64,000 nucleotides of DNA. Origin: an uncultured Candidatus Actinomarina sp. Its GTDB lineage: Bacteria > Actinomycetota > Acidimicrobiia > Actinomarinales > Actinomarinaceae. Below are positions 3,682 through 42,307 of this stretch, in pieces (within the stretch, counting starts at the first letter, position 1; each line of letters begins with the position of its first letter). The stretch spans positions 160,001 to 224,000 of the forward strand of contig CACPJC010000001.1 of the NCBI GenBank assembly GCA_902634185.1, in the 5' to 3' direction. A program made the position numbers and the translations under genes. The notes below the pieces were generated by a model. That model had not been told where the DNA came from and did not search any database. It saw only the letters and a program-made list of their open reading frames with translations.

Positions 3682-4626
3682 GTGGATAAAAAAATTCAAA
3701 AAAAACTAAAAACATGGCTTGATAATGATTTAATAACTGAAGATGTTTTTTCTTCGATTGAAAGTTTTGAAAGTAGTGAGCCACAAAAAACAGAAAAAGG
3801 AACCCTTTCAAAAACAATAATTCTAATTGGAGGACTTTTAGTTTTTAGTGGAATAACTCCACTTATCGGGCAAATTCCAGATTGGGCTCAATTAATATTG
3901 TTAATTTTATTTACGTTTGTACTTTTTTATTCAGCTTTTTATATTGAAAAAAAATATCAAGGAAACACATTTTTATTTGATTCGAATGAAACTTTAAGAA
4001 ACTTTTTATTTTTATTAGCTACAGGAGCTTCTGGTTTTACATTCTTATTTATTTTTGAATTTTTCAACACTGCAGAAGAAATTACAAATACAATAACATC
4101 TTTTTTAATTTTTATTTTGTCTATATATTTATTCAATAAGACAAGATATTTATATCAACAATTTACACTCTTTGTTAGTTCACAAGTACTTTTATTCAAC
4201 CTTTTGGAATTTTTATCCTCTGATACTTTTAATGATTTACTTTATGGTGCTTCTCAGTTATTAATTGGTTCATATTTTTTAAGGTATACATTTAAAGAAT
4301 TTGAACCAAAATGGCTAGGATATTTTCTTTCAAGTATCTCATTAGTGACTGGTATGGGAATTATTGATTCATACCTTGGCAGTGATGAATTAATCGGAAA
4401 AATTCTTAATATTTTACTCTCAACTGTTTTGATATGGTTAAGTGTTCGATTAACGAGTCAAACTATTCTTTTTGTAGGATCAATTGGTTTATTAATTAAT
4501 CTTTCGTTTTTAATTTATGAAATATTTCCAGAACTTGGTGCTCTACTCTATCTTGTGATTGGAACACTTTTTATTTTTGCTGGTCTTTATCTCAATAGGC
4601 TTCGAGAAGATATAAAAAAAATTTAA
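3682..4626 (+). CDS. Multi-pass membrane protein, DUF2157-like
   Basis: N-terminal LKTWLDNDLIT followed by many TM helices. Confidence 0.6.
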   Translation: MDKKIQKKLKTWLDNDLITEDVFSSIESFESSEPQKTEKGTLSKTIILIGGLLVFSGITPLIGQIPDWAQLILLILFTFVLFYSAFYIEKKYQGNTFLFDSNETLRNFLFLLATGASGFTFLFIFEFFNTAEEITNTITSFLIFILSIYLFNKTRYLYQQFTLFVSSQVLLFNLLEFLSSDTFNDLLYGASQLLIGSYFLRYTFKEFEPKWLGYFLSSISLVTGMGIIDSYLGSDELIGKILNILLSTVLIWLSVRLTSQTILFVGSIGLLINLSFLIYEIFPELGALLYLVIGTLFIFAGLYLNRLREDIKKI

Positions 4627-5582
4627 AGAGTGAAGGGTTTTTCTGGCCTTACTCCAATTTCACTAATTACATGGGCAGCGCTTTTATTTGCAATTAATGC
4701 GGTCTCTTGCATGGATAATTTTTCTTCTATTCCAAATAAATATCCTGCAGCAAAATAATCCCCTGCACCTGTTTTATCAACAACCTTTGCTTCTGTAGCT
4801 TCAAAAAAATACTGTTTATTTTCTTTCATAACTATGACCCCATTAGCTCCTAATGTGCATATAAGTTGATCAAGTTTAGGAAAATTTTTACTTATAAAAT
4901 CTAAAGACTTTTCTGTTGAGTCCTGTTCTGTAAGAGCTTTTATTTCATCTTCGTTACAAAATACATAGTCTATATTTTCTTTTATTAGATCAATAAAACT
5001 GTCCCTATGTGCCTCAACACAAAAAACATCGGACAAGGATAAAGCATTTTTTCCACCAGATTGTTTATTTATCGATGATGCATACATAAATGCTTCCTTG
5101 CTTGGTAACCTGTCCCACAAATAACCTTCCATATATAAAATGTTGCAATTTTTTATAGACTCCTCATTAAGATCTCCCATTGATAATTGGGCACCAGCTC
5201 CTAAATATGTATTCATTGTTCGTTCACCATCTGGTGTTATAAAAATTGCACACAATCCAGTTTGTTCATTCTCTTCTCCAAGAACTGTAAAGTCACTGAG
5301 TCCATGCTCAGATAAGCTTGACCTGAACTGTTTTCCAAGTTCATCATCTGAGATTTTACCAATAAATCCTGCGGAGCCTCCTAAGGCCGCTATCCAATAA
5401 GCAGTATTTGCTGCAGAGCCTCCTGCAGCATAAGTTGGATTTGGCATATTGCTAAGTAAATAGTTTGATCTCTCTTTATCCACAAGAGTCATTCTTGCTT
5501 TGTTAAGGTTTAGTTTATCAATAACATCTTCATCGATTTGTTGAAGTGAATCAACAAGTGCATTTCCAATACAAATAATCAC
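4623..5582 (-). CDS. PfkB-family carbohydrate/adenosine kinase
   Basis: GNALVD, GGSAANT, PDGERTMNTYLGA, VVDKTGAGDYFAAG. Confidence 0.9.
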   Translation of the reverse strand: MIICIGNALVDSLQQIDEDVIDKLNLNKARMTLVDKERSNYLLSNMPNPTYAAGGSAANTAYWIAALGGSAGFIGKISDDELGKQFRSSLSEHGLSDFTVLGEENEQTGLCAIFITPDGERTMNTYLGAGAQLSMGDLNEESIKNCNILYMEGYLWDRLPSKEAFMYASSINKQSGGKNALSLSDVFCVEAHRDSFIDLIKENIDYVFCNEDEIKALTEQDSTEKSLDFISKNFPKLDQLICTLGANGVIVMKENKQYFFEATEAKVVDKTGAGDYFAAGYLFGIEEKLSMQETALIANKSAAHVISEIGVRPEKPFTL

Positions 5583-5591
5583 AAATTGATT

Positions 5592-5951
5592 TTAAATGAT
5601 AATACCTGGATTTCCATCAGAACTGATAATTTTATTTGATTCATTTGAAAGCTTTTTCATTCCACCAATAAGATTATATGATTGGTAACCAATCGAATTT
5701 AAAAACTCTGAAACCTTGCCTGATCTATGACCTGATCTACATACAATAATATAAGAAGATTCCTGATCAAATAATTCTAAGCTTTCTGGTACTTCACTCA
5801 TCTTTACATGTTTTGCTTCTTCATGATGTCCATACGTCCATTCATCATCTTCCCTAACATCTATCAAGCTCCAGCCTGATGATAATTTAGCATCTAGTTC
5901 ATTTGGAAAAACACCTGTTGAGTCTCCGGTATTATCTATATCTAATTCCAC
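5592..5951 (-). CDS. Single-domain rhodanese-like protein
   Basis: LIDVREDDEW..GH, active-site loop CRSGHRS, NLIGGM. Confidence 0.9.
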   Translation of the reverse strand: MELDIDNTGDSTGVFPNELDAKLSSGWSLIDVREDDEWTYGHHEEAKHVKMSEVPESLELFDQESSYIIVCRSGHRSGKVSEFLNSIGYQSYNLIGGMKKLSNESNKIISSDGNPGIII

Positions 5952-6771
5952 TAGCTTCCTCTCTAAGCCTTCTTACTCTTTCTTTAGTAGGTGGGTGAGT
6001 AGAAAATAATTTTCTCAATCCGGAACCAGTAAATGATTTTAGAGGATCAGATATAAACAACTGACTAACCGCAGGATTAACATTCAATGGGTTTTTTGAA
6101 TACATCTCAATCTTTTCAAGAGCTGAGGCTAATGCTAGTGGATTGCCAGATATGGAAGAACCTGTTTTATCTGCGCCATATTCTCTTGTTCTTGATATTG
6201 CCAATCTAATTATTAAAGATGCAATAGGCGCTGCGATAAATGCTATCAAGATAATAAATGGATGTGTTCCTCTATCCCTTTGTCCCCCACCCCAAAAAGC
6301 TATTCTTGACATAAATGAAATTGCAGCTGCAAGCATCGCTGCGATACTTGATACCAAGATATCTCTATTTTTGATATGTGATAATTCATGAGCTAGAACA
6401 CCCTCAAGCTCGTCTCTGTTTAGAACTTTCATAATCCCTGTTGTAACAGCAACAGCAGAATTTTTTGGGTTTCTTCCTGTTGCGAACGCATTTGGTTGGT
6501 CACTTTCAATTACATAAAGTTCAGGCATTGGCATTTTTTCTTTTTGTGCAAGAAAAGTAATTATTTCTCTAACCTCATCATATTCTCCATCTTCAAGTTT
6601 TCTTGCTCTGGTTGAAGCAAGTGCTATTCGAGATGAATAAAAATACATTATGAAATTAAAGATAAAAGCAAAGAATAAGGAAAAAATAAGATCAAAACCC
6701 AATGCTTGAGCAGTAAATATTACTAAAACTGTCATAAGCGTCAGTAAAGTAGTAGTTTTTAAAACATTCAT
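5932..6771 (-). CDS. htpX: Membrane zinc metalloprotease HtpX (M48)
   Basis: PNAFATGRNP, HELSH, SRTREYGAD, LFSTHPP. Confidence 0.95.
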   Translation of the reverse strand: MNVLKTTTLLTLMTVLVIFTAQALGFDLIFSLFFAFIFNFIMYFYSSRIALASTRARKLEDGEYDEVREIITFLAQKEKMPMPELYVIESDQPNAFATGRNPKNSAVAVTTGIMKVLNRDELEGVLAHELSHIKNRDILVSSIAAMLAAAISFMSRIAFWGGGQRDRGTHPFIILIAFIAAPIASLIIRLAISRTREYGADKTGSSISGNPLALASALEKIEMYSKNPLNVNPAVSQLFISDPLKSFTGSGLRKLFSTHPPTKERVRRLREEASGIRYR

Positions 6772-6795
6772 ATTTTTAATTATAATTTATCTGGC

Positions 6796-7830
6796 TTATA
6801 GTTTTTTGGCCTCAATACAATAAAAACCTCCTAAACCACGATCATTATGTATTGCTTCTAGCCCAACAATATCTGATTTTAATTTAAGTTGGTCTACGCC
6901 ATAAGTTTCAACAAATTGGTTTTTTAAACTTGAATAATTTTCCTGATAACCATATTTATCAAGAAATTCATATTGTTTCATAATCTTGTATTCAAAATTA
7001 TTTTCTTCAAAATATTGTTTTAAAAAGGAAAAATTTACATCGTACGTGATATCGGTCTCCGTAGGCATTTCTATTGGATCACTTGAAAGATGGTGTTCTT
7101 TATAAGTTCTAATTAATGATTTATATGGTTTTAGATTTCTCTCTTCGTATTCGAATCCATAATCAAAAATTAGTAGATGATTTGGGTCAACTTTTTTGAT
7201 GAGTTCGTCTAAAAATTGTTCTGTATTGTATTGAATTTCAAGCTCATTATCTTGGTTATCTAAAAAATTATATTTTTTAATCCATTTAAGATTTGATTCA
7301 CGCATTTCTACTTTTCCATATCTAAGTTCATTATCTTTTGTTAATTCAATTGTTTTTTCATACCAAGTATTGTCTACTTCTATACCGACAGAACAAGGTA
7401 TATTATCTAACACTTCATTCATATAAATAGTTTTTATCTGAGATGCACCATAGTTGTCTAAATTGCTATCAACCAAAAAATTTTTACTTTTAAGTGCTTT
7501 TAGGGCATTTAACGAAATTTCGGAAACATAGATTTCTTTTTCAAGATACTTTGACACCTGATTCGCAAGTGAACCTGTTCCTGCTCCAACTTCAAGTATA
7601 TTTGAATCACTATTGATTCTATTTTCTTTAATCCAGTTTGAAATAAATAATCCAAAGTAATTAGATACTTCTGGTGAGGTTAAAAAATCACCAGATTTAC
7701 TGGAGCGGACTTCGCCCTTTGCAAAAAATCCATAATCAGAATAAAGACATTCCTGCATGAATTCATCAAAGTATAAATAGTTTTTACTGTATTTATTTTT
7801 GAGGTAATCAATAAATATTTTTTCTACCAC
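6796..7830 (-). CDS. SAM-dependent methyltransferase, MidA/NDUFAF7 family
   Basis: GDFLTSPEVS, ILEVGAGTGSLA, NEVLDNIP, DYG, DITYDVNF; starts 4 bp after the nuoN stop. Confidence 0.9.
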   Translation of the reverse strand: MVEKIFIDYLKNKYSKNYLYFDEFMQECLYSDYGFFAKGEVRSSKSGDFLTSPEVSNYFGLFISNWIKENRINSDSNILEVGAGTGSLANQVSKYLEKEIYVSEISLNALKALKSKNFLVDSNLDNYGASQIKTIYMNEVLDNIPCSVGIEVDNTWYEKTIELTKDNELRYGKVEMRESNLKWIKKYNFLDNQDNELEIQYNTEQFLDELIKKVDPNHLLIFDYGFEYEERNLKPYKSLIRTYKEHHLSSDPIEMPTETDITYDVNFSFLKQYFEENNFEYKIMKQYEFLDKYGYQENYSSLKNQFVETYGVDQLKLKSDIVGLEAIHNDRGLGGFYCIEAKKL

Positions 7831-7834
7831 TTAA

Positions 7835-9316
7835 TTAGCTATTAAAAAATATTGATGAAGCTTCACCTAGATTGCTGAATATGCCTGGAAAAATTCCAGA
7901 GACAATTGTCAAAATTAAACTTACAAAACCAACAACTTTGAGTGGGCTTGGGATGATTGAATTTTCGGTCTTTTGAACATCTTCTTTTGGACTATCCATC
8001 CATATAATTTTTGAAATTCTTGAATAATACACCAAGCCTATTACAGCATTAATAGCACCAACTATAGCTAGAGATAATCCAAAAATTTCACCTGTGCTTA
8101 GTAAGCTTCTGAAAACTACAAATTTTGCAAACCATCCTCCAAGAGGCGGAATTCCTGCAAGAGAGAAGAAAAATATTACTGCAAAGATTCCTGCTAATGG
8201 TGTTTCTTTTGCAAGACCTCCCCAGTCATACATATTTTCTGAGTCAATATTTCTTTGTAACAAATTAATCACTAAAAATGCACCTATATTCATAAATGCA
8301 TAAATAATTAGATACGTAACACTTGCATAAACACCATCTTCAAAATTATTTGTTATGTTTGCAACAGCTATCGGCGCAAGAATAAACCCTGCCTGTGCAA
8401 TCGATGAATATGCTAGAAGTCTTACTGGATTTGTTTGTTGTAAAGCTGATAAATTACCAACAAACATTGTTATACCAGAAATGAATACAAGTACTATCCC
8501 TAATCCATCTCCAGATTCAAAAAATATTTTTGACATCAAAATAATTAATGCAATAAAGCCAGTCGCTTTGGAGCTAACAGATAGATAAGCCGTTACTGGT
8601 AAAGGTGCTCCTTCATAAGTATCAGGTGCCCAAGAGTGAAATGGAACTATTGATATCTTGAAGCCTATACCCGCCAAAATAAGTATTGCGCTTAGTAAAG
8701 CAACAGGTGATTGGGCAAGATCTTGCTGAATTAAAATATTAGCTATATCTGAAAAAACTAGCTTTCCAGTTACTCCATAAAGTAGTGAAAAGCCATAAAG
8801 AATTAAAGATGCTGATAGTACTCCCAGTAAAAAGAATTTAATTGAACCTTCATTTGATTTTTGATCGCCTTTTTTCCAGCCAGATAAAAGAAACATTGGC
8901 GTTGAAGCTAATTCAATTCCAATAAACATTGTTAGTAAATCTCTTGAAGAGGTTACTACTAATGCTCCAAGCAGAGAACTTAACAGAAGAAAATAATATT
9001 CTCCCTGGTAATATTCATCACTTTCCACAAAATTTACGGACAATAAAAATGTCAGATAAGTAACCAAGATAAATAGACCTTTTAGAATCAAGGAAAATTT
9101 ATCAATTACATAACTTCCCTCAAACATAATCTCTGGAGTTGTATAGTTGGCAAATTGAAAAATAATTGGAAGGAATGCAAATAGCGATCCAAGAATTGAT
9201 ACCATTGCAATGATGAATTTAAATTTTCTTGGTAAAAGTATATCTAATGTTATAGCAGCCACAATCGTTAGGATTACTATTAATTCACTTGATATAGCGA
9301 AATAATTAATATTAAT
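7835..9316 (-). CDS. nuoN: NADH-quinone oxidoreductase subunit N (operon 1); probable ATT start at 9316, ORF track gives GTG at 9262
   Basis: GFKISIVPFHSWAPDTYEGAP, RLLAYSSIAQAG, SLAGIPPLGG. Confidence 0.95.
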   Translation of the reverse strand: MNINYFAISSELIVILTIVAAITLDILLPRKFKFIIAMVSILGSLFAFLPIIFQFANYTTPEIMFEGSYVIDKFSLILKGLFILVTYLTFLLSVNFVESDEYYQGEYYFLLLSSLLGALVVTSSRDLLTMFIGIELASTPMFLLSGWKKGDQKSNEGSIKFFLLGVLSASLILYGFSLLYGVTGKLVFSDIANILIQQDLAQSPVALLSAILILAGIGFKISIVPFHSWAPDTYEGAPLPVTAYLSVSSKATGFIALIILMSKIFFESGDGLGIVLVFISGITMFVGNLSALQQTNPVRLLAYSSIAQAGFILAPIAVANITNNFEDGVYASVTYLIIYAFMNIGAFLVINLLQRNIDSENMYDWGGLAKETPLAGIFAVIFFFSLAGIPPLGGWFAKFVVFRSLLSTGEIFGLSLAIVGAINAVIGLVYYSRISKIIWMDSPKEDVQKTENSIIPSPLKVVGFVSLILTIVSGIFPGIFSNLGEASSIFFNS

Positions 9317-9318
9317 TT

Positions 9319-10896
9319 TTAGCCTCCGAACGCTTTAGATACCAAAGCAATAACTGCATCATTAGTTGCTCCAAATATAAGTTTTGGAAATACTCCTATC
9401 AGAACAGTGAGTATTACTAAAGGTATCCAAGCAACAAGTTCATAATTGTCTGCATCATGAAGCTCTTTATCTAACCATTCTTCTTTAGGCTCACCAAGAT
9501 TAACTCTTTGAAGCATCCATAGTAGATAACCTGCTGTTAAAACAGTTCCAATTGCACCTGCAACCATGGAGGATCTAAAAATTGTAATATTTAAACCAGG
9601 TAATGGATTGTATGCTCCAAGGAGAGCCATAAATTCTCCCCAAAATCCTGCCAATCCAGGTAAGCCAAGTGACGCCATAGCTGTAAAAGCTAAAATAGCT
9701 CCAGTCTTTGGAAGAAGTTTCATATTTCCACCTAATCTTCCCATGTCTCTAGTGTGATAAGTATGTGCCATAGAACCAGAAACAAAGAATAATAAACCAG
9801 TAATTATTCCGTGGGCAACCATTCCAATCATTGCAGCATTAATACCTATTGAGGTTAGTGAAGATATCCCAAGCATTACAAAGCCCATATGTCCTACTGA
9901 AGAAAATGCAATCAATCTTTTAAGGTCTGTTTGTGCCAAGCAAGCAAGAGAGCCATATATTATTCCAATTGCTGACAGCACTGCAATAGCTGGAGCCCAA
10001 GCAACAGCCTGTTCTGGAAGAATAGGTAAAGCAATTCTTACAAAACCATAGGATCCAAGTTTTAATAAAATTGCAGCTAATAAAACAGATCCAACAGTTG
10101 GTGCAGCTGTGTGTGCATCAGGCAACCATGTATGTAGTGGCCACATTGGTACTTTTACTGCAAAACCCAAGAATAAAACAGCAAAAACTAACGTTGCAAA
10201 TGTACCTGTGAATGCTCCACTAGAACCAAGCTCAATTAGTTCGGGAATACTAAATGTTCTATTTCCCCTGAAATATAAACCTAGGAATCCTAAGAGCATG
10301 AAAGCAGATCCAAATAAAGTAAATACAAAAAACTTAATACTTGCATAAAGTCTTGTTTCAATATCATTCTTAAGTCCAGAAACACTTCTGACAGTTTTAT
10401 CTCCCCAAATACCAATCATGAAATACATTGGTAGTAAAACAAGTTCAAAGAACACAAAAAATAAAATTAGATCTAATGCCACAAATGTACCATTCATTCC
10501 AGTTTCTAAAATTAAAATCAAAGACATCATTCCTTTTGCATTTTTTGGTTCAGGTAAATGTTCAAAAGAATAAATAATTGCTAATACAGAAATGAAAGTA
10601 GATAAAAGTAATAAAGGTAAAGAAATACCATCTATACCTATTTCATAATTTGAATTAATACTACTAATCCATGAGACCTTAGTACCAAGCTGAAGGTCAC
10701 CAGCATTATTAAAATCAAATTGCAAGGCAACAATTAAACTTACTCCAAAAGTAAGAAGTGCAGATCCAAGAGTTACTAATTTAATTAGCATCTCTTGTTT
10801 CTTAGGTATTAAGAATATAAAAATTCCAGATACAAGCGGAAGAAAAACTACTATGGTTAAACCTAATCCACTCTCCAAAAAAGAAAAACTACTCAA
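9319..10896 (-). CDS. nuoM: NADH-quinone oxidoreductase subunit M (operon 1)
   Basis: VKVPMWPLHTWLPDAH, GLPGLAGFWGE. Confidence 0.97.
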   Translation of the reverse strand: MSSFSFLESGLGLTIVVFLPLVSGIFIFLIPKKQEMLIKLVTLGSALLTFGVSLIVALQFDFNNAGDLQLGTKVSWISSINSNYEIGIDGISLPLLLLSTFISVLAIIYSFEHLPEPKNAKGMMSLILILETGMNGTFVALDLILFFVFFELVLLPMYFMIGIWGDKTVRSVSGLKNDIETRLYASIKFFVFTLFGSAFMLLGFLGLYFRGNRTFSIPELIELGSSGAFTGTFATLVFAVLFLGFAVKVPMWPLHTWLPDAHTAAPTVGSVLLAAILLKLGSYGFVRIALPILPEQAVAWAPAIAVLSAIGIIYGSLACLAQTDLKRLIAFSSVGHMGFVMLGISSLTSIGINAAMIGMVAHGIITGLLFFVSGSMAHTYHTRDMGRLGGNMKLLPKTGAILAFTAMASLGLPGLAGFWGEFMALLGAYNPLPGLNITIFRSSMVAGAIGTVLTAGYLLWMLQRVNLGEPKEEWLDKELHDADNYELVAWIPLVILTVLIGVFPKLIFGATNDAVIALVSKAFGG

Positions 10897-10912
10897 TATT
10901 TACCACTCTCTC

Positions 10913-12931
10913 TCATAACACTAACAAAATTATTAAGCTAATAACTATCACTCCTATTAAAAAATACATTAAGTATTGTTGAGTTTTACCAGTTTGAATT
11001 AATTTGACTTTACTACCAATAGTGTCTGTACCTGTTGAGGATAAATTAAGTACCTTGTCAATACCTCCTTGGTCAAGATTTGTATATACAATTCCTCCTG
11101 CTTTTGAAGCAGTTGTCCCAACACCATTAACAAACCGATCAAGGACATTTGAATTAAATGAGTCAACAAATTTAGCAAAAGTTATTTTTACTGGATCAAT
11201 TATGAATTTGAAGTAGAAAAAATCTAAATAGTATTTATTTTCCAATAAATTCCATATTGGTTTTATTTTAATTTTTTCATCGCCGTCAGTTGCATTTCCT
11301 GAAATTTGATAGACGTAGTAGGCAAGTCCAATACCCAAAAGTCCGGATGTAAGACCACTGAACATAGCAACCAAATCAAATGATTCAGGATGATATTCTA
11401 CAATGTAATTTTTCCTGGTTGTAACCCATTTTGTAAATCCTGTATAAACACCAGGTATGTTTGCCCATCCTGCAACAATGGCAAAGCCTGATAATATTAT
11501 CAAAGGAATTGTCATCATTTTGTCAGATTCGTGAGGGTGTCCATCACCCCGATAGTCACCAAAAAATGTTAAAAGAACTGCTCTTGTCATATAAAACGCA
11601 GTGATAAAGGCTCCAAGAACTGAAATAATAAAATATAAATTATGCCCTTCATGATTGAGTGATGCGAGTATTTCATCTTTTGAGAAAAATCCAGCTAATG
11701 GAGGAAGTCCAGCAAGAGCTACAGTTCCAATAATGAAGGTTGAAAATGTTCTGGGCATTTCTTTCCTTAGGCCACCCATTTCAGACATGTTATTTGTGTG
11801 CACTGCATGAATTACCGAGCCAGCACCTAAAAATAATAAAGCTTTAAAAAATGCATGAGTCCATAAGTGAAAAAGACCTGCAGTGTATGCACCTGAACCC
11901 ATTGCCGTAACCATGTAACCAAGTTGACTTACTGTTGAATATGCAAGAACTTTTTTGAGATCATCCTGGACTACAGCAACTAATCCTGCTCCAAGAAGTG
12001 TTATTACTCCAAATAAAAGAACTATATCTAAGGCTTGTGAAGCCATTCCTTGGTAGAAAGGAAACATGCGGCCAAGAAGATAGACACCCGCGGTGACCAT
12101 AGTTGCTGCATGCATTAGAGCAGATACTGGTGTTGGTCCTGCCATTGCATCAGGTAACCATACATGAAGTGGAAATTGGGCACTCTTTCCCATTGCACCT
12201 ATAAACAGAAGTACTCCACCTAAATATGCTACGGTTTTGATATCTGCATAATCATGAGTTGATTGATACAATATCTCAGAAATTCTCAAGGTTTTTGTTG
12301 ATAATGCAAGAACAATGATTCCAATCATTAACCCAACATCAGCAATTTTATTAGTTATAAATGCTTTCATCGCTGCGGAAGAATTTTCCTTTTTTTCCCA
12401 GTAATGACCAATTAGTAGATAAGAACAAACTCCAACTAATTCCCAACCAATCAACAATTGCAAAAGTGTTGGAGAAGAGACTAAAACTAACATACTCCCA
12501 GCAAATAATGTGAGTGATGTAAAGAAGAAAGTATATCTTATTTCACCTTGCATATAATTTGTTGCATATATAAAAACTAAAGATGAAACAGTACCAACTA
12601 CGAAGTACATCATGATAGACAATCCATCTACGACCCAGCCAAACTCAAGATCATAAGAACCAATACTTCCTACGTTGATAAAAAATTCATTGGCGATTCC
12701 TTTTGTCGAATGCTCATAAAGTAAAGCTGCGCTAAATGAAAATATGAATAAAACTGTTCCTAAAGCAAGCTCTGCACCTTGTAAAGGGAGATATTTTCCA
12801 AAAAAAGTAATCAAAATTGCAGCTAAAAAAGGAAGTACAACAATCAACCAAGTAAATTCAGCGAGTACACCGCCATCAGTATATTCTGGCTTACCTTCAG
12901 CGAGTAAATTTATAAAATTCTGATTCACCAT
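10913..12931 (-). CDS. nuoL: NADH-quinone oxidoreductase subunit L (operon 1)
   Basis: KSAQFPLHVWLPDAMAGPTPVSALMHAATMV, HAFFKALLFL. Confidence 0.97.
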   Translation of the reverse strand: MVNQNFINLLAEGKPEYTDGGVLAEFTWLIVVLPFLAAILITFFGKYLPLQGAELALGTVLFIFSFSAALLYEHSTKGIANEFFINVGSIGSYDLEFGWVVDGLSIMMYFVVGTVSSLVFIYATNYMQGEIRYTFFFTSLTLFAGSMLVLVSSPTLLQLLIGWELVGVCSYLLIGHYWEKKENSSAAMKAFITNKIADVGLMIGIIVLALSTKTLRISEILYQSTHDYADIKTVAYLGGVLLFIGAMGKSAQFPLHVWLPDAMAGPTPVSALMHAATMVTAGVYLLGRMFPFYQGMASQALDIVLLFGVITLLGAGLVAVVQDDLKKVLAYSTVSQLGYMVTAMGSGAYTAGLFHLWTHAFFKALLFLGAGSVIHAVHTNNMSEMGGLRKEMPRTFSTFIIGTVALAGLPPLAGFFSKDEILASLNHEGHNLYFIISVLGAFITAFYMTRAVLLTFFGDYRGDGHPHESDKMMTIPLIILSGFAIVAGWANIPGVYTGFTKWVTTRKNYIVEYHPESFDLVAMFSGLTSGLLGIGLAYYVYQISGNATDGDEKIKIKPIWNLLENKYYLDFFYFKFIIDPVKITFAKFVDSFNSNVLDRFVNGVGTTASKAGGIVYTNLDQGGIDKVLNLSSTGTDTIGSKVKLIQTGKTQQYLMYFLIGVIVISLIILLVL

Positions 12932-13230
12932 TTCATTAAATCAAATTCATTAATATTGGCTGTTTCTCGATTTCTGAAAAGCATTAGAACAATAGCTAAT
13001 CCAATACCAACTTCTGCTGCTGCAATTGTGATAATAAATATTGAAAAAATCTGGCCATTTAAAAAAACATCTGAAAGCATAGCATTGAATGCAACAAAAT
13101 TTATATTTACTGAATTGAGAATCAGCTCAATTGAAAGTAAAACCATTACTGCGTTTCTTCTGACAAGAATTCCATAAATACCTATCGAGAACAAAGCTGC
13201 TGCTGCAATTAGTAATGGTTGAATGCTCAT
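12925..13230 (-). CDS. nuoK: NADH-quinone oxidoreductase subunit K (operon 1)
   Basis: IELILNSVN, AAAEVGIGLAI. Confidence 0.96.
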   Translation of the reverse strand: MSIQPLLIAAAALFSIGIYGILVRRNAVMVLLSIELILNSVNINFVAFNAMLSDVFLNGQIFSIFIITIAAAEVGIGLAIVLMLFRNRETANINEFDLMKW

Positions 13231-13745
13231 ATTTGGTCTTCGTCCATTAATGCATTATCTTTTCTCGCTAGTGTAATGCCACCAATTAAAGCTCCCAACA
13301 AAACAAATGAAACTAGCTCAAAAGGAAAGACAAATCTACTCAGTAAAATTTCTCCTAATAATTTAGTAGATGTTCCTTCACTAATAACAACTGTTGAGTC
13401 AAATGTTTGTAGAAGAATATATGTAAATATTCCAAAAATTGAAAGTGATATTACAGCAGCCATTAATTTATTTTGATCATTATCTAGTTCAGCGTTTGGA
13501 CCTAAAGGAGCTCTAGTGATCATCACACCAAATAAAAATAGAACAATAACTGCTCCTATATATACAAGTATTAGGACTAAAGCTACAAATTCAGCGGATA
13601 ATAATATGAATAAAACAGCAGTAGTAGCAAGAGTAAATACTAAAAATATTGCAGCGTGTATAACATTTGAAGTGGTAACAACTTTTACTCCACTTAGTAA
13701 TAGCAACAGCAAAAGAAAATATGAAAATATGTCTATTGCTTCCAT
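13227..13745 (-). CDS. nuoJ: NADH-quinone oxidoreductase subunit J (operon 1)
   Basis: LVYIGAVIVLFLFGVM, FPFELVS. Confidence 0.95.
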   Translation of the reverse strand: MEAIDIFSYFLLLLLLLSGVKVVTTSNVIHAAIFLVFTLATTAVLFILLSAEFVALVLILVYIGAVIVLFLFGVMITRAPLGPNAELDNDQNKLMAAVISLSIFGIFTYILLQTFDSTVVISEGTSTKLLGEILLSRFVFPFELVSFVLLGALIGGITLARKDNALMDEDQI

Positions 13746-14230
13746 TAGCTCTCTAAACCTGGACCTTCAGGAACTGTCTTTAACCATTCGTCAAGCCTGT
13801 CTTTATCATGGAGCATATCGCCCATAGAAAATTCTGAATATTCGTATTCCGGTGACCAGAACAATGCATCAAATGGACATACTTCAACGCATATCCCACA
13901 ATACATACAAAGTGCATAATCAATATCAAACCGATCGAGTACTGCCCTGCTTCTCTGACGTCCTCCTGGTTTTGAGGGAGGTTGTAGTTCTTTGTGACCC
14001 TCTATGTAAATACACCAGTCGGGACAAGATCTTGCACACAACATGCAACTTGTACATGCTTCAGAATCTAAAGCAATGACACCCCTAGTTCTCGGTGCGA
14101 GTATTTCTTTTTCAAATGGATAATTAACGTTAGGATTTTCAAAAAAAGGAAGAAGGGTTTTAAACATATTGCCAATAACAATTTTTAGTCCAGTTAAAAA
14201 TCCAGGAATCCTTGGTTTGAATTTTTGCAT
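13745..14230 (-). CDS. nuoI: NADH-quinone oxidoreductase subunit I (operon 1); start reassigned to ATG 14230
   Basis: Two CxxCxxCxxxCP motifs; TAATG coupling to nuoH. Confidence 0.93.
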   Translation of the reverse strand: MQKFKPRIPGFLTGLKIVIGNMFKTLLPFFENPNVNYPFEKEILAPRTRGVIALDSEACTSCMLCARSCPDWCIYIEGHKELQPPSKPGGRQRSRAVLDRFDIDYALCMYCGICVEVCPFDALFWSPEYEYSEFSMGDMLHDKDRLDEWLKTVPEGPGLES

Positions 14231-15210
14231 TAAAAAACAACTTTCATGATTGCTGTAGCCATTATATTCAAAAGAGATAGAGGTATAAGGATTTTCCAAG
14301 CAAGAGTCTGAAGTTGATCCTCCCTAAATCGTGGAAAAGACCATCTAATAGCAATGAGGATAAATGCTAGTAAAAATGTCTTTCCAATTAGAACCAATGG
14401 ACCATAAAAATTAACCCATTCTGTCGGTAAAAGTGGGACATGATAACCCCCCAAAAAAAGAGTTGAGGCAATCGCACACATTACAAATAAATTTATATAT
14501 TCAGAAATATAAAAAATAAGAAATCTAATCCCAGAATATTCTGTAAAAAAGCCCATAGTTAATTCAGATTCGCCAATTGGCATATCAAATGGTGTTCTCA
14601 TCATTTCAGCAGTTGCAGCAATCATAAAAATAATAAAAGCAATACCCTGTCCTGCTATTACAAAAGGAAAACCAAATTCAATCTGTTTTTCAACTATTCC
14701 AACTGTTGACATTGTTTCAGCTTGTATAACGACACCAACTACAGATAAAATAAGTGGCAATTCATAAGCAATAAGTTGACCTGCTGCTCTTAAGCCACCC
14801 ATTAGAGAAAATTTGTTTGCAGAAGACCATCCAGCGGTAAGGACTCCAATGGTGGAAATGGAGCTAATTGCAAGTAAAAAGAAAACACCCAGTTCCAGAT
14901 CACGAACAATTAATGTGGGACTTAATGGAATAATTGTGAATAGGCCTACTACAGCAGCTATAACCCAAGCTGGCGCCCACTTAAATACGGGTTCGTCAAC
15001 ATCATTTGGAATGATTGTTTCCTTTTGTAGATATTTTGCAGCTGTTGCGAGTGGAAATATAAAACCTCTTAAACCAACATGAAGAGGACCTGGTCGCCTT
15101 TGCATCCAGGCAGAACCTTTAACCTCTAGCAATGTAAGTCCTAAAGCCATAACTGGAGCTGTAGCTAAAACAACCAAAACTTTGATAAGCAACTCGGTAC
15201 TAAAACTCAT
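14230..15210 (-). CDS. nuoH: NADH-quinone oxidoreductase subunit H (operon 1)
   Basis: QRRPGP, GGLRAAGQLIAYE, RTPFDMP..ESEL, PRFREDQL. Confidence 0.96.
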   Translation of the reverse strand: MSFSTELLIKVLVVLATAPVMALGLTLLEVKGSAWMQRRPGPLHVGLRGFIFPLATAAKYLQKETIIPNDVDEPVFKWAPAWVIAAVVGLFTIIPLSPTLIVRDLELGVFFLLAISSISTIGVLTAGWSSANKFSLMGGLRAAGQLIAYELPLILSVVGVVIQAETMSTVGIVEKQIEFGFPFVIAGQGIAFIIFMIAATAEMMRTPFDMPIGESELTMGFFTEYSGIRFLIFYISEYINLFVMCAIASTLFLGGYHVPLLPTEWVNFYGPLVLIGKTFLLAFILIAIRWSFPRFREDQLQTLAWKILIPLSLLNIMATAIMKVVF

Positions 15211-16403
15211 CTGTCTACATCTCCAAGAACAAAATCTAAACTACCCATTATTGCTATCAAGTCAGGAAGCAAGGCCCCCTCAAGCATGATTGGCAAAATT
15301 GAAATGTTACTAAATGAAGCTGTTCTTATTTTTAACCTATAAGGTCCTAAACCACCTTCAGAAATAATATAATATCCCATTTCACCCTTTGGGTTTTCTG
15401 CTCTTACATATGTTTGCCCTTTAGGAACTTTTATAACTTTTGGTACCTTTGCTTGGATTGGTCCAGAAGGCATGTCTTCAATTGCTTGTAAAATAATTTT
15501 TGCAGATTCTCTCATTTCGGATGTTCTTACAGACCATCTATCAAAACAGTCACCATTTTCACCTATTGGTATTTCAAAATCAAATTTGTCATATGGTAAG
15601 TAATTTGATTGTTTTCTCAAATCAAACTCAACACCTGATGCTCTCAATATTGGACCAGATACTCCATACTCTTCGGCAACTTCTTTTGGTAATACACCAA
15701 CATTCTTTGTTCTAATTTGAAATACTTCATTTCCACCTATTAAATCTTCAAATCTATCAACAGCTTCAAGTACTTTTTGCATTGCAACTTTGGTATCGTG
15801 ATAAAAACCTGCAGGTAGATCCTGTATGTCTTTTTTTGTTGTTGGCCCAGCACCTGCGGCAGGTTTTACCCCACCGATTCGATTAAAGTTTGGATGAAAT
15901 CTTCCACCGGTAACTGATTCAAGCAAATCAAGAACCCTTTCTCGATCTTCCATAGCTAAAAATATAGGTGTAAGTGCGCCAATTTCGAGCGGGAAAGCTC
16001 CATTAAAAACAAAATGTGAACTTATTCTTGCCATTTCAGTCAAAATCAGTCTGATGTATTGTGCTCTTTCAGGTACTTCGATTTCCATTAATTTTTCTGC
16101 ACCAGCGATAAATGGAATTTCATTCGCAAAACCTGAAACCCAGTCAATTCTATTTACTAATGTTGTTACTTGTGGATAAGTTCTGACCTCTGCAAGTTTC
16201 TCATATCCTCTGTGCATATATCCAAGTACAGGTTCAACACTGGATATTTTTTCTCCATTAATTTTAGCTACTAACCTCAAAACACCGTGAGTCGATGGAT
16301 GTTGAGGGCCAATATTTAAAGTCATATCTTCTGTTTCTATTTCAACAGAAACTGATGCTTCAGATAAGATTGGCATATTGTTTGGATCCATTGTTTGAGC
16401 CAT
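15207..16403 (-). CDS. nuoD: NADH-quinone oxidoreductase subunit D (operon 1)
   Basis: GPQHPSTHGVLR, GYMHRGYEKL, ENPKGE, GDVDR C-terminus. Confidence 0.97.
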   Translation of the reverse strand: MAQTMDPNNMPILSEASVSVEIETEDMTLNIGPQHPSTHGVLRLVAKINGEKISSVEPVLGYMHRGYEKLAEVRTYPQVTTLVNRIDWVSGFANEIPFIAGAEKLMEIEVPERAQYIRLILTEMARISSHFVFNGAFPLEIGALTPIFLAMEDRERVLDLLESVTGGRFHPNFNRIGGVKPAAGAGPTTKKDIQDLPAGFYHDTKVAMQKVLEAVDRFEDLIGGNEVFQIRTKNVGVLPKEVAEEYGVSGPILRASGVEFDLRKQSNYLPYDKFDFEIPIGENGDCFDRWSVRTSEMRESAKIILQAIEDMPSGPIQAKVPKVIKVPKGQTYVRAENPKGEMGYYIISEGGLGPYRLKIRTASFSNISILPIMLEGALLPDLIAIMGSLDFVLGDVDR

Positions 16404-16963
16404 TAGCTACCTTCTTCTGAGACTACGATGTTATCTTCTGGCATACCTTCTACATCAACTTCACCTGGCCAAGGTTTAACTTCTCTACTTATCAACTCAA
16501 ATGATTTAAGTAGAGGATTCCCTTCATAAGCATCAGGAAGATAGAGTTTCTTTAAATTTGGATGGTTCAAGAAATTTATGCCAAACATTTCATAAGCTTC
16601 TCTTTCATGCCAGTTCGCTCCACCAAAAACTTCAACTAATGAATCAATCTGCGGATCATCTTTTGAAATCTTTGTAGATGATATAACTAAGTCGTCAGAA
16701 TTTGTTTTTGATAAACAACTTAATATTTCAAAACTTGGGGTTACTGGTTCTTTTGGTGCGTCGCCGGTCTTTACATCGTTATCCCAGTCAACAGCAGAAA
16801 GCCAATTAAAAAAATTTAAGTTAAATTCTACTTTCAATGTTTTATGCGTATCAACCCAAGACTGAGAATCTACTTCAATTTTTAATGTATCAAATTCAAC
16901 TGATGAATTTTGAAATTTACTTTGAATTGAATTTACGAATTCGTTTTGATCAGACTGGTTCAA
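16403..16963 (-). CDS. nuoC: NADH-quinone oxidoreductase subunit C (operon 1)
   Basis: [24 protein letters not shown]. Confidence 0.94.
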
Positions 16964-17447
16964 TGTCTTTTTCTCTCCACTTTTCTTTCATATCTTCACC
17001 TTTTATTTTTTTCTGTAATAAAACTATTCCTTCTTGCAAAGCTTCCGGTCTTGGAGGACATCCGGGAACATAAACGTCAACTGGAATTAATTGATCTACT
17101 CCTTTTGTAACAGAGTAAGAATCCCAATACGGTCCCCCACTGTTTGAACATGAACCCATTGAAATTACATACTTTGGTTCCGGCATTTGATCATATAATC
17201 TTTTAACTGCTGGGGCCATTTTGTCGGTCACGGTACCTGCAACTACCATTAGGTCAGCTTGCCTTGGCGATGCAGGAAGTGGAATTATACCTAATCTCAT
17301 AAAATCATGTCTCGGTCCACTTGCTGCCATAACTTCAATGGCACAGCATGCTAAACCAAATTGAAAATACCACATATCATATGCTCTTGCCCAATTCAAT
17401 ATTTTAGAAATAGGCTTGGGAATTCCAAACTTTTCAATTACTCCCAT
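16950..17447 (-). CDS. nuoB: NADH-quinone oxidoreductase subunit B (operon 1)
   Basis: [23 protein letters not shown]. Confidence 0.97.
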
Positions 17448-17803
17448 TTGAGGACATCCTTTCTAATGGCATATATCAAACCAAGTAAGAGAATAAAAAT
17501 AAAGATAAACATTTCAACCAAGCCAAAGTATCCAAGATTTTCAAGATTTAGTGCCCATGGAAAAATAAATACTGCCTCAACGTCAAAAATTACAAATAAT
17601 AAACCAAATATATAGTATCTAACATAAGTTTGGCTCCATCCACCACCTACTGGATCTACTCCGCACTCGTATGTTTTAACTTTTTCTGGAGTTGGTTTTT
17701 TGGGACTAAGTAATGCAGATACAGAAATAAATACTAGAAACAAGACAAGTCCGAGACCTATCATCGCCCCAACAGTAACGTAATCCTGAAAATAAGAAAT
17801 CAT
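17438..17803 (-). CDS. nuoA: NADH-quinone oxidoreductase subunit A (operon 1)
   Basis: [19 protein letters not shown]. Confidence 0.96.
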
Positions 17804-17879
17804 ATAATAACTTTAGTATGCTCTTAAAAAGTTTAGTTTTATTTCAAACTTCAGAGGAATTCTTTTGTAAAATTTTTTT

Positions 17880-18965
17880 ATGGATAAAAATAATTTTTTT
17901 CTAGATTCTCCAAATTTAACTGATCTTGTTCAGGTATTAATCAATAACATTTGTTCAGAAAAGATATTTAGTGTTAATCCAAAATTAGTTCTAAAAAAGT
18001 ACGATAAATCAATCAAAAAAATAAATTTTATTTTAGTTGATGGCTTAGGTAGCAAAAATATCGAAAATTTAGATAATTTATTTACCAATAACCAAACCGA
18101 TGAGATTGTCTCTACATTTCCCAGTTCTACAAGTGTTGCCTTAAGTTCTATTAATTTTGCTTCTAAACCAATAGATAATGGTTTGATTGGATATTTTCAT
18201 TTTGATAAACAGGAAAATAAATTAATCAATACCTTAAATTGGAAAGGTTCTGAGACTTACCTAAAAAATAATGATTTCTTCTCTTCCCAAAAAACTATTT
18301 GGAATATATTGAGTCAAAATAAAATTAATTTCAATGTTATTCAACCTAAAAATTTGATTGGTAGCCCTCTATCTGATCACATATATATGGGTGCGAATCA
18401 AATAGGCTATGAAAATTTAAGCGAGCTTGAAAATATTTTATCTTTACCCGAAATATTAGATAATCACTTTAATTACATATATTATCCAGTGATTGATGTT
18501 GCAGCACATATATATGGAACAAATAGTGACGAATGGCAAAATGAAGTTAACATCTTTTCAGATTTTTTATCAAGAATGATAAAAATAGATTCAAATAGAT
18601 ATACATGTATAACTGCTGACCATGGAGTTGTAAATATTGAAGACCAAAACAAATATAGACTTAAATATGATGAATCTGTAAAAATTTATGGCGATCAAAG
18701 AGCAGTATATATAAATGGGGAAGTTGAAAAAATTGAAAAAGTATTCAAGAACGTTCCAGGGTATTTTTTAGAAAAAGAAGAAATAATCTCTTTATTAGGT
18801 ACACCTACTAATGAACATATAGAGAATTTTTATCCAGAGCAAATTTTTCTTCTTGATGATGGAAACATAATTTTTCCAAATCATCTAAGTGCAAACTTAA
18901 AAGGCTATCACGGAGGAATTTCTAAGACAGAGGTCTCTATACCTTTGATTGAAATAATAAATTAA
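17880..18965 (+). CDS. Alkaline-phosphatase-superfamily protein (nucleotide pyrophosphatase/phosphodiesterase-like)
   Basis: LVDGLG, STFPSSTS, D...H, TADHG, GYHGG. Confidence 0.85.
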   Translation: MDKNNFFLDSPNLTDLVQVLINNICSEKIFSVNPKLVLKKYDKSIKKINFILVDGLGSKNIENLDNLFTNNQTDEIVSTFPSSTSVALSSINFASKPIDNGLIGYFHFDKQENKLINTLNWKGSETYLKNNDFFSSQKTIWNILSQNKINFNVIQPKNLIGSPLSDHIYMGANQIGYENLSELENILSLPEILDNHFNYIYYPVIDVAAHIYGTNSDEWQNEVNIFSDFLSRMIKIDSNRYTCITADHGVVNIEDQNKYRLKYDESVKIYGDQRAVYINGEVEKIEKVFKNVPGYFLEKEEIISLLGTPTNEHIENFYPEQIFLLDDGNIIFPNHLSANLKGYHGGISKTEVSIPLIEIIN

Positions 18966-18967
18966 TT

Positions 18968-19039
18968 ATGGTCTTGTCTTATATAGGTATGTTGTTTGTC
19001 TTAATTATGATGATTTTTCTATTTAGAAAAATAAAGTAA
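18968..19039 (+). CDS. Putative 23-aa single-TM micropeptide
   Basis: MVLSYIGMLFVLIMMIFLFRKIK; fills the gap between two convergent stop codons. Confidence 0.4.
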   Translation: MVLSYIGMLFVLIMMIFLFRKIK

Positions 19040-19902: not shown

Positions 19903-20097
19903 ATGAATAAACAAGAAATTTATCAAGAAATTCAAAAAATTCTACATGAAATTAATGATATTTCAAAGTCTTTATCTTCTTCAAGAGAGTTTATATCTGA
20001 AGATTCAAATAAAAGAGCTCAAGTAAGACTGGCAGAGATCGAGAGTGACTTGCAAACTATTGCTGGAAGAATAGCAAAAATTAGTTCAGTTCTTTGA
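19903..20097 (+). CDS. Small hypothetical helical/coiled-coil protein (64 aa)
   Basis: ATG-start ORF filling the intergenic space; heptad-like pattern. Confidence 0.65.
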   Translation: MNKQEIYQEIQKILHEINDISKSLSSSREFISEDSNKRAQVRLAEIESDLQTIAGRIAKISSVL

Positions 20098-21111: not shown

Positions 21112-21113
21112 AT

Positions 21114-22670: not shown

Positions 22671-22710
22671 AATACTAAGAATATCTTTGATTTTGACTTA
22701 TTAAAAGAAA

Positions 22711-22742
22711 AATTCTGGCCAAAGAAACTCTTGGCCAGAATT
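22711..22742 (-). terminator. Hairpin between the binding-protein and permease genes (terminator or mRNA stabiliser)
   Basis: AATTCTGGCCAA-N8-TTGGCCAGAATT, followed by TTTCTTTT on the minus strand. Confidence 0.75.
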
Positions 22743-22780
22743 CTATTCTGTTTCGAGCTTACTAGTTAATTAATGACGGA

Positions 22781-34168: not shown

Positions 34169-34170
34169 AT

Positions 34171-34999: not shown

Positions 35000-35000
35000 A

Positions 35001-35615: not shown

Positions 35616-35622
35616 AATTTTC

Positions 35623-40338: not shown

Positions 40339-40952
40339 TAGCTTTTTTCCTTAGCAGTACCGATATTTTGAAATCCCGGAACAGAATAAGATGAACCTGT
40401 ATTGTCTTTAATTGCCCAGTCAAATGACTTTACACCTCCAAATTTCTCTTGAAGTTCTTCAGCTATAATTATTTCTGGTCGTTCTTCTTTAAGCCATTCA
40501 CACATTTGGAGTGACTTTTCAGGTGTCAATCCTTCAACTGTTTCGTAATTAACTTGAACAGCTGGTGCTCCACCGCAAGCACCGATGCACTCAACTTCCT
40601 CAAAAGTAAAAACCTTCTCAGTATCTGTTTCATAATTTTCTAAGCCTGTAAAGTTTTTGACAGAATCTATCACGCTTCTTGAGTCATTTATTTCGCATGA
40701 GATTGACTTACATACACTTAATAAATACTTACCGGTTTGCTCTTCTTTGTACATAGAGTAAAAGGATGCAACTGACTTTACTTGAACTTCAGTAATGCCA
40801 ATAAGATTACTAATCTCTACAATTGAATCATTTGATATATATCCGTCTTTTTCTTGTGCTAGATATAAAAGTGGCCCTAAAGCAGATCTTTTTTGAGGAT
40901 ACATATCAATAATTTCTTTTGCTTTATCAATCAATGCTTTTTCCCAACTCAT
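40338..40952 (-). CDS. nuoE: NADH-quinone oxidoreductase subunit E
   Basis: VASFYSMY, CKSISC, ECIGAC. Confidence 0.96.
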   Translation of the reverse strand: MSWEKALIDKAKEIIDMYPQKRSALGPLLYLAQEKDGYISNDSIVEISNLIGITEVQVKSVASFYSMYKEEQTGKYLLSVCKSISCEINDSRSVIDSVKNFTGLENYETDTEKVFTFEEVECIGACGGAPAVQVNYETVEGLTPEKSLQMCEWLKEERPEIIIAEELQEKFGGVKSFDWAIKDNTGSSYSVPGFQNIGTAKEKS

Positions 40953-42307
40953 CTGTCAACATCTCCTAAAACTGGATCTAAGGAGGCTATTGCTGCAACT
41001 GCGTCTGCAATTGGACTGTCTGACATTACTACTGGTAAAGCTTGAAGATTACAGAAGGATGGTCCTCTTACGTGCATTCTATAAGGTTTTGATGATCCGT
41101 CTGAAACAATAAAACAGCCCAACTCTCCTCTAGGAGATTCAACTGTGGTATATACTTCTCCTTCTGGAACTTTAAAGCCTTCTGTGTATATTTTAAAATG
41201 GTGGATCAAAGCTTCCATTGACTCATCAAGTCTTTTTCTTGGCGGAGGGGTTATTTTTTTATCTTGAATTTTGAACGGGCCTTTAGGCATATTTCCCATA
41301 GCTTGTTCAACAATCTTTAAACTTTCAAAAATTTCTAAAACTTTGATTCTCCACCTTGAAAAGACATCTCCTTCTTCAAAAACCGGAATATCAAACTCAT
41401 ATTTTTCTATACCTGAATAAGGTTGCATTTTTCTTAAATCCCATGCATATCCGCTAGCTCTAAGACTTGGACCAGTTATGCCGTATGCCAAACATTCTTC
41501 AGTCGTTAATATTCCAACATTCTTAAGTCTTCCTTGCCAAATAGGATTGTCTAAAAGCATTTCATCATAGTCTTTTAGTTTTTCAGGTATAACTTTCAAT
41601 ATCTTTTCAATATCTTTTTGCCAATTATCTGGTAAATCTGCTGCGACACCACCCGGTCTTATAAAGTTGTGATTCATTCTAAGACCTGTTGTCTTTTCAA
41701 AAAAATCAAGAATTAATTCTCTTTCTCTAAACCCAAAAATCATCATTGATAATGCTCCGATATCCATTCCACCAGTTGCTAATGCAACAAGGTGTGAGGA
41801 GATTCGATTTAGTTCGGTCATTAATATTCTTATTGTTGATGCTCTATCAGGAACTTCAATATCTAGTAGTTTTTCAGTCGCTAATGAAAAAACAAGTTCA
41901 TTGAAAAAAGGCGAGAGATAATCCATCCTTGTAGTGTTAGTAGGTCCTTGAAAGTAATTTAACTCTTCTCCCGTCTTCTCCATTCCAGTATGAAGATAAC
42001 CAATTACAGGCTGTACTCTTCTTACGACTTCACCTTCAAGTTCTACTTGTAACCTTAAGACACCATGTGTTGATGGATGCTGAGGTCCCATATTTAAAAT
42101 CATTCTTTCATCATCAGAAATATCATCATCAATAAAATAATCATCGATAACTTCTGAACCCATTTGAATTTTTGTAGTTACTTCGTCTTCTTGATCCAAC
42201 ATTTTTTGTGATCCTTCATCAGTTGAAGAAATGTTCCATCCACCCTCTTCTGAATTTGTAGCCCAGAAGTCTACATCTTTTACAGTATCTTTATTTTCTT
42301 CCATCAT
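40949..42307 (-). CDS. nuoD: NADH-quinone oxidoreductase subunit D (operon 2)
   Basis: GPQHPSTHGVLR, GYLHTGMEK, ESPRGE, GDVDR. Confidence 0.97.
   Translation of the reverse strand: MMEENKDTVKDVDFWATNSEEGGWNISSTDEGSQKMLDQEDEVTTKIQMGSEVIDDYFIDDDISDDERMILNMGPQHPSTHGVLRLQVELEGEVVRRVQPVIGYLHTGMEKTGEELNYFQGPTNTTRMDYLSPFFNELVFSLATEKLLDIEVPDRASTIRILMTELNRISSHLVALATGGMDIGALSMMIFGFRERELILDFFEKTTGLRMNHNFIRPGGVAADLPDNWQKDIEKILKVIPEKLKDYDEMLLDNPIWQGRLKNVGILTTEECLAYGITGPSLRASGYAWDLRKMQPYSGIEKYEFDIPVFEEGDVFSRWRIKVLEIFESLKIVEQAMGNMPKGPFKIQDKKITPPPRKRLDESMEALIHHFKIYTEGFKVPEGEVYTTVESPRGELGCFIVSDGSSKPYRMHVRGPSFCNLQALPVVMSDSPIADAVAAIASLDPVLGDVDR

Follow-up and report, generated by a model that had tools for sequence, protein, structure and literature searches.

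Does a bacterium that encodes two versions of respiratory complex I keep an arginine methyltransferase for only one of them? The question is raised by a stretch of 64,000 nucleotides (the window) from an uncultured Candidatus Actinomarina sp. (GenBank assembly GCA_902634185.1, contig CACPJC010000001.1, positions 160,001 to 224,000). Here midA, a gene of the MidA/NDUFAF7 family, lies directly behind an eleven-gene nuo operon whose NuoD (NuoD1) carries an arginine at a site where the NuoD of a second, fourteen-gene operon (NuoD2) has a threonine. NDUFAF7 is the enzyme responsible for modifying the corresponding arginine in human cells (PMC3829151), and bovine, human, Pichia and Paracoccus complexes are reported to carry symmetric dimethylation at the equivalent residue; the E. 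coli complex is reported to have none (PMC3750175). What the dimethyl-arginine next to cluster N2 does is not yet clear, since mitochondria offer no way of separating its effect from assembly defects (PMC8042128). The original prediction for this window, made from its sequence, placed a mitochondrial-style methylation step on the eleven-subunit complex. The reading that we favour and consider reasonably probable is that MidA is a bacterial protein arginine methyltransferase of the MidA/NDUFAF7 type that serves the complex I encoded just upstream of it, a form without NuoE, NuoF and NuoG (EFG-less). It starts from direct observations, namely the family membership and fold of MidA, the presence of the target arginine, and the linkage of midA to Arg-type nuoD genes.

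The window belongs to a low-GC (~33%), streamlined marine actinobacterium of the Ca. Actinomarina type with a genome of 974 kb. Operon 1 (7835-17803, minus strand) comprises nuoA-B-C-D-H-I-J-K-L-M-N, each of the 11 genes matching its expected Pfam family, and Pfam searches found no nuoE, nuoF or nuoG in it; these are present only in the second operon (29323-43585), which holds all 14 nuo subunits. By gene content and Pfam matches, operon 1 therefore encodes a complex I of the 11-subunit, EFG-less type. Its last structural gene is nuoN1 (7835..9262, minus strand; PF00361), whose TAA stop codon (7835-7837) is followed by four nucleotides (TTAA) and then by the GTG start of midA at 7830, exactly the arrangement that had been predicted. 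The 4-nt gap says little here, because the median intergenic distance across the order Actinomarinales is ~2 bp (PMC7771536). The spacing was consequently discounted as evidence of coupling, and weight was put on conservation in less compact relatives.

Membership of MidA in its family is settled, because the score against PF02636 (Methyltransf_28) lies above the cut-off and the fold matches MidA and COG1565 proteins; the original prediction had assigned it to this family, and profile and fold both agree. The product of midA (6796..7830, minus strand), an S-adenosylmethionine (SAM)-dependent methyltransferase of 344 aa, is the only PF02636 match in the genome (E 2.2e-23, 83.5 bits, cut-off 23.3), residues 63-278 aligning over profile positions 7-242 of 249. 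The profile also has matches in the Synechococcus and Haloferax genomes taken as controls. An AlphaFold2 (AF2) model built on 15 homologues reaches a predicted local distance difference test score (pLDDT) of 90.9 and a predicted template modelling score (pTM) of 0.90. The six chains of the Protein Data Bank that Foldseek places closest to the model are all MidA/COG1565 proteins (5zu0/5ztz, 1zkd and 4g67/4f3n), with E-values from 1e-19 to 2e-17 and template modelling (TM) scores of 0.71-0.81. The next hits, other methyltransferases, trail by about ten orders of magnitude (E 3e-7, TM <0.5). Sequence comparison by phmmer also detects solved MidA/COG1565 relatives, with E-values of 4.8e-7 and 2.8e-6.

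The glycine-rich motif I, through which class I methyltransferases bind SAM, is present as LEVGAGTGSL in residues 79-88 of MidA; across 15 sequences G84 and G86 never vary, and conservation of E80 and G82 reaches 90% or more. The motifs DF.TSPE, G.G..L and NE..DN are likewise invariant in the 15 Acidimicrobiia homologues. These observations bear on whether midA might be a decaying or inactive remnant, a view that could appeal to the protein being shorter and more divergent than its solved relatives. Against it stand an unbroken frame in 37 of the 39 genomes searched (G000 plus 38 relatives), where those without a match are 69% and 78% complete, together with 28 invariant alignment columns that include the SAM-binding glycines, a confident structural model, and contigs from RNA libraries that cover the gene. 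Decay is thus very improbable.

The genome holds only two NuoD genes that could be found, nuoD1 (15207..16403, minus strand; PF00346, E 3.3e-84) and nuoD2 (40949..42307, minus strand; PF00346, E 1.5e-113; TIGR01962 score 547 against a cut-off of 459), whose products share 40% identity. NuoD1 reads GYMHRGYEKL, its Arg65 being encoded by AGA at 16209-16211, and NuoD2 reads GYLHTGMEKT, its Thr107 being encoded by ACT at 41987-41989. Both motifs and codons had been read correctly in the original prediction, as had the conclusion that NuoD1 alone keeps the target arginine. With no gap in the alignment, Arg65 falls opposite Thr64 of Thermus Nqo4 and opposite the arginine in the GLLHRGTEKL of Yarrowia NUCM; Thermus Thr64 is the equivalent of NDUFS2 Arg85 (Rhein 2013, PMC3829151). 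The residue is invariant in 20/20 Acidimicrobiia NuoD1 sequences. Methylation of Arg65 is plausible, an assessment based on comparative genomics and gene linkage.

NuoD1 is itself somewhat unusual. It has the PF00346 match and the gene position, between nuoC and nuoH, of a NuoD/NDUFS2 protein, and it scores above the cut-off of NF004739 (417.6 versus 360) and below those of TIGR01962 (430 versus 459) and NF008974 (452 versus 522). Thermus NuoD has two residues, His38 and Tyr87, which we take to be ligands of the quinone head group. NuoD1 keeps the first as His39 but has Trp88 (TGG, 16140..16142) at the position of the second, where NuoD2 retains Tyr130. Tryptophan is found here in every row of the actinobacterial GYMHR-type clade, in an operon or solo and with or without MidA, so that the change is not limited to orphan (solo) copies; more distant Arg-type NuoDs keep the tyrosine, like NuoD2. 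Because Trp88 replaces the quinone-ligating tyrosine, NuoD1 appears to be homologous to NuoD but to differ in its quinone pocket, which suggests that the pocket of the EFG-less complex is altered. A separate arrangement occurs in the small genomes of families f14, f29 and f44 (loci L225, L228, L234, L236 and L238; working handles are given where items must be told apart): a single Arg-type nuoD, reading GYLHRG[VI]EK and keeping the tyrosine, lies ~2 kb from nuoH with other genes between, and midA is on another contig; G040 is without MidA.

In the mechanism that we envisage, MidA would bind newly made NuoD1 and use SAM to dimethylate Arg65. Because this residue is expected at the NuoD-NuoB interface next to cluster N2, the modification would have to precede the docking of NuoB, which is also the order in mitochondria and Paracoccus. 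At this site the 14-subunit complex, like Thermus, has a threonine and would for that reason need no such step. What MidA acts on, at which residue, by what kind of methylation and to what end in assembly are points transferred here from the only characterised activity of the family, and each should be read as a prediction.

Support for a partnership between MidA and the EFG-less complex comes from gene linkage, which extends beyond this genome. A nuoN1 homologue lies directly before midA in 20 of 21 same-genus loci and in 17 of 18 Actinomarina-like loci from a public genome collection, both exceptions being loci truncated at midA; on the other side of midA come htpX, a rhodanese gene and a pfkB kinase gene. 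Each of the 16 genomes examined from other Acidimicrobiia families contains NuoDs of both types, with GYMHRGYEK[LI] in all 16 NuoD1-like copies and GYLHTGME[KR]T in the NuoD2-like copies of the 14 genomes whose locus was retrieved. The Arg/Thr split first noticed in the window thus held throughout. In 12 of these 16 genomes midA sits directly behind the Arg-type operon; in the other four it is ~6 kb further along (one), ~690 kb away (one) or on a different contig (two). Among 62 further Acidimicrobiia loci the operon was found upstream on the same strand in 17 (eight with a gap of <300 bp, nine with 0.7-8.8 kb), and the remaining 45 showed no nuo gene in the available upstream sequence, which is often short.

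Outside the Acidimicrobiia the linkage takes another form. Sixteen published genomes from eight families carry a solo Arg-type nuoD, and midA lies less than 8 kb away in every one, at distances from 7 bp to 7.4 kb; the families listed are f20, f26, f31, f38, f42, f48 and f50, with f46 represented only by an unpublished genome. Twelve solo-nuoD loci of 7.7-19 kb contain no other nuo gene, their neighbours being unrelated genes. Spacing was measured in 12 genomes: the two genes are convergent with 3' ends 7-40 bp apart in four, convergent and 180-340 bp apart in two, on the same strand with midA upstream in two, and 1.5-7.4 kb apart in four. Search-hit coordinates place the pair ~0.9-2.5 kb apart in the remaining four genomes. 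Since the second nuo operon reads A-B-C-H-I-J-K-L-M-N, with no room for nuoD, in 5/5 orphan-bearing genomes examined, the solo nuoD is most simply the missing D subunit of this nuoD-less operon. A reading of the solo gene as a spare or disabled copy is not supported, as these five operons have no nuoD of their own and the in-operon NuoD1 of Acidimicrobiia shares the Trp-for-Tyr change. In three of these five genomes htpX remains behind nuoN while midA has moved with nuoD. Because the solo nuoD keeps midA nearby while the other nuo genes stay in the nuoD-less operon, midA goes with nuoD, not with the remaining operon genes.

Two cases illustrate this behaviour within a single family or cell. 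In f20 a solo nuoD of the HRG type sits beside midA in each of the three genomes with MidA; the five without MidA have only an HRA nuoD, placed inside the operon. Three NuoD types coexist in G088: HTG within the 14-gene operon, HRA within the EFG-less one, and HRG as a solo gene convergent with midA (loci L172/L250 on G088:C42 and L190 on G088:C69). The solo genes form three well-supported groups in a 93-row NuoD tree, and a single clade of solo nuoD genes was rejected (p-AU 7.7e-8, for a group defined after the tree was seen). The tree thereby indicates that solo nuoD arose at least twice, with midA beside it each time. The MidA tree follows families, as expected for vertical descent.

How the pairing behaves across the phylum was assessed in 151 evenly drawn Actinomycetota genomes, among which MidA is present in 54 and a NuoD match in 135. 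These tallies include the unpublished genomes G039, G055, G083, G102, G121, G150 and G175, none of which entered either tree or was counted among the 16 solo genes; G055 and G083 read HRG and are MidA-positive, G102 reads HRA and is MidA-negative, and G121 has the solo arrangement. The target position was read in 90 NuoD genes of the sample and in seven from class relatives outside it, and these rows are the best NuoD1-like matches and so not a random sample. Arginine is kept in all NuoD1-like proteins read, regardless of MidA in the genome. Among the MidA-positive genomes 50 were read, four unpublished ones being set aside, and 49 of the 50 have an Arg-type NuoD; any nuoD near midA is of the Arg type, never the HTG type, in all linked loci examined. 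The proposed association of midA with the arginine-bearing rather than the HTG form of NuoD stood to this extent; in the other direction it failed, because an Arg-type NuoD also occurs in at least 39 MidA-negative genomes.

Those 39 genomes are one of several findings that weigh against a role of MidA at this arginine. Among them are nine genomes of f18 (HRA or HRS), eight of f19 (HRG), five of f20 (HRA), six of f36 and two of f23 (HRC). The arginine is necessary for the methylation reading and yet does not predict MidA, nor does it need the enzyme, in keeping with E. coli, whose conserved arginine is reported to be unmodified (PMC3750175). Secondly, in G111, a MidA-positive genome that is 98% complete, only an HTG-type NuoD was found (L267, G111:C9), an exception that may be an assembly gap or may point to a different substrate. 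Thirdly, of the 54 sampled genomes with MidA, 26 have its gene away from nuoD: in 25 the two are on separate contigs (this applies to all 10 genomes of f13 and to six of the seven MidA-positive ones of f22), and in G104 (f22) they share a contig but lie 30 kb apart. Fourthly, the residue after the arginine in midA-adjacent NuoDs is Gly or Ala (Ala in 5/16 solo genes), so that no simple RG motif marks the substrate. Finally, related genomes are non-independent observations. An RG motif had been considered as a predictor of MidA, given that MidA-less f20 and f18 show HRA; it was rejected both because the f19 genomes and several others read HRG without MidA and because of the HRA reading in some midA-adjacent solo NuoDs.

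Some of these findings would suit a MidA whose substrate is unrelated to complex I, its place behind nuoN being an inherited gene order in a very compact genome. Tight spacing means little where the median intergenic distance is about 2 bp (PMC7771536), nearly half of the MidA-positive genomes have midA unlinked to nuoD, and G111 keeps MidA with only an HTG-type NuoD found. Such a reading is nevertheless improbable, as it leaves aside a linkage that recurs in three arrangements (co-directional after nuoN, convergent with solo nuoD, and upstream of solo nuoD) and spans at least 16 families. A simple calculation of our own puts the probability that the two genes lie within 10 kb of each other by chance at <1% per genome, for genomes of 2-3 Mb, and the solo nuoD seems to have arisen at least twice with midA alongside each time.

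Rather less improbable, though still unlikely, is that MidA serves the EFG-less complex by a route other than Arg65, modifying a different residue or subunit, or binding and holding NuoD with methylation as a secondary matter. Gene linkage points to a partnership with NuoD or with the complex and names no residue, and both the wide occurrence of Arg-type NuoD in the absence of MidA and the variable residue after the arginine would be easier to accommodate. What tips the balance towards Arg65 is that methylation of exactly this arginine is the sole characterised activity of the family (PMC3829151), that the arginine is invariant in the midA-linked NuoDs read (20/20 Acidimicrobiia NuoD1 and 16/16 solo sequences), and that midA follows nuoD rather than other subunit genes. 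The methyltransferase acting on NuoD1 of the EFG-less complex therefore remains our preferred reading.

On a wider scale it is possible, and we offer this tentatively, that MidA and Arg-type NuoD form an ancient actinobacterial enzyme-substrate module that predates or parallels the proposed 'proteobacterial origin' of the modification. The D subunit would be made and methylated apart and then inserted, a checkpoint specific to the Trp-pocket complex. That nuoD left the EFG-less operon and yet stayed beside midA in at least two lineages suggests such separate manufacture. If the module is real, culturable members would provide a simple bacterial system for learning what the methylation does. 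Actinobacteria offer a natural control within one cell, a complex with the arginine and a linked methyltransferase versus a complex with threonine at the same site. The presence of MidA in about a third of the genomes sampled would mean that the predicted modification system extends beyond alphaproteobacteria and mitochondria. In some families the gene of the target subunit stands free beside that of the enzyme, which makes the substrate question testable in bacteria by knockout and mass spectrometry. The NuoD1 peptide of the abundant Actinomarina can also be searched for in marine metaproteomes.

The surroundings of midA add context. The other genes of operon 1, all on the minus strand, are nuoC1, nuoB1 and nuoA1 (16403..17803; PF00329, PF01058, PF00507) and nuoM1, nuoL1, nuoK1, nuoJ1, nuoI1 and nuoH1 (9319..15210; PF00361, PF00662, PF00420, PF00499, Fer4, PF00146). 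On the far side of midA and on the same strand, an htpX-like M48 peptidase gene follows after 24 nt (5932..6771; PF01435, E 7e-36), and the rhodanese (5592-5951; PF00581) and pfkB kinase (4623-5582; PF00294) genes complete a conserved gene string that is kept within the genus. An htpX-like M48 gene also comes after the EFG-less nuoN in three distant families (L263 10263-10970, L264 1211-1909 and L265 49-753), and in Acidimicrobiia midA is located between nuoN and htpX, which hints at a link between the htpX-like protease and the EFG-less complex. Upstream of operon 1 lie a heliorhodopsin gene (19040-19864, minus strand) and the genes of an Fe3+-type ABC transporter (20086-23881); in this genome a plus-strand Phosphodiest/PglZ-like open reading frame (ORF; 17880-18965) separates the heliorhodopsin gene from nuoA1.

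Transcription across the nuoN-midA junction was approached in two ways. A scan of positions 4000-19500 was uninformative: it returned 46 promoter-like sites against 68.8 in shuffled sequences, that is fewer, and no terminator between nuoN and midA. Marine metatranscriptome contigs bridge the junction in three of four runs (X1, X4 and X9, from three studies; not X7). These contigs hint only weakly at co-transcription, as DNA carry-over is possible and a two-gene contig is no proof of a single transcript. In a large protein collection three singleton proteins (P0121, P0123 and P0125) join PF02636 to PF00361, the NuoL/M/N domain, a point in favour of the preferred reading, and no MidA-NuoD fusion was found among the five longer proteins recovered, which is weak evidence of absence. 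The midA frame of G036, another member of the Acidimicrobiia, is open for 856 codons (G036:C3:15821-16474); this frame and the joined proteins could be real nuoN-midA fusions or the outcome of lost stop codons. Elsewhere in the window an ORF of 180 aa (26606-27148) gives a sub-threshold match to the ATP10 family of mitochondrial ATP synthase assembly factors (E 2.8e-4, 20.7 bits versus a cut-off of 22.3), and this is probably due to chance.

Parts of this picture have been described before. Two nuo clusters were noted in the Actinomarinales genome paper (PMC7771536), and a 2021 heliorhodopsin preprint (bioRxiv 10.1101/2021.02.01.429150) reports the gene string afuABC, heliorhodopsin, 11-subunit nuo, NDUFAF7 (K18164/PF02636), htpX, pspE and adenosine kinase, treats the last genes as accessory factors of the complex, and places a 14-subunit copy nearby. 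The available parts of that preprint and of Spero 2015 (PMC4453560) contain no mention of an Arg/Thr difference between NuoDs or of solo nuoD-midA pairs, and none was found in the literature, supplements and subscription papers aside. The window represents the same locus type as the string of the preprint, with its heliorhodopsin gene and the same downstream genes. The local Actinomarina gene order and the status of NDUFAF7 as an accessory factor are thus already published, and it is the phylum-wide behaviour of midA, which follows nuoD, that adds to them.

The role of MidA is said, by Shahul Hameed et al. 2018, to be conserved from bacteria to humans, and the system described here can be set beside its known relatives. 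It resembles human NDUFAF7 and Arg85 of NDUFS2 in that the enzyme belongs to the same Pfam family and the same arginine, within an H-R-G-x-E-K motif, is present in the neighbouring NuoD. Unlike its human counterpart, to which its similarity is remote, this MidA is a compact bacterial protein of 344 aa that is known here from sequence and model; unlike the human complex, its presumed partner is without NuoE, NuoF and NuoG and has tryptophan for the quinone-ligating tyrosine. Its best structural matches are MidA of Dictyostelium (5ztz, 5zu0) and the bacterial COG1565/DUF185 proteins (1zkd, 4g67, 4f3n), from which it differs by an identity of 16-20%, by several shorter loops, and by a length of 344 rather than 357-401 residues. 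The closest bacterial precedent for the modification is Nqo4 of Paracoccus denitrificans, where a bacterium is reported to modify this arginine, while E. coli keeps the residue unmodified (Carroll 2013, PMC3750175). Paracoccus carries an alphaproteobacterial 14-subunit complex, whereas the organism described here is an actinobacterium with two complexes, only the EFG-less one of which is a possible substrate.

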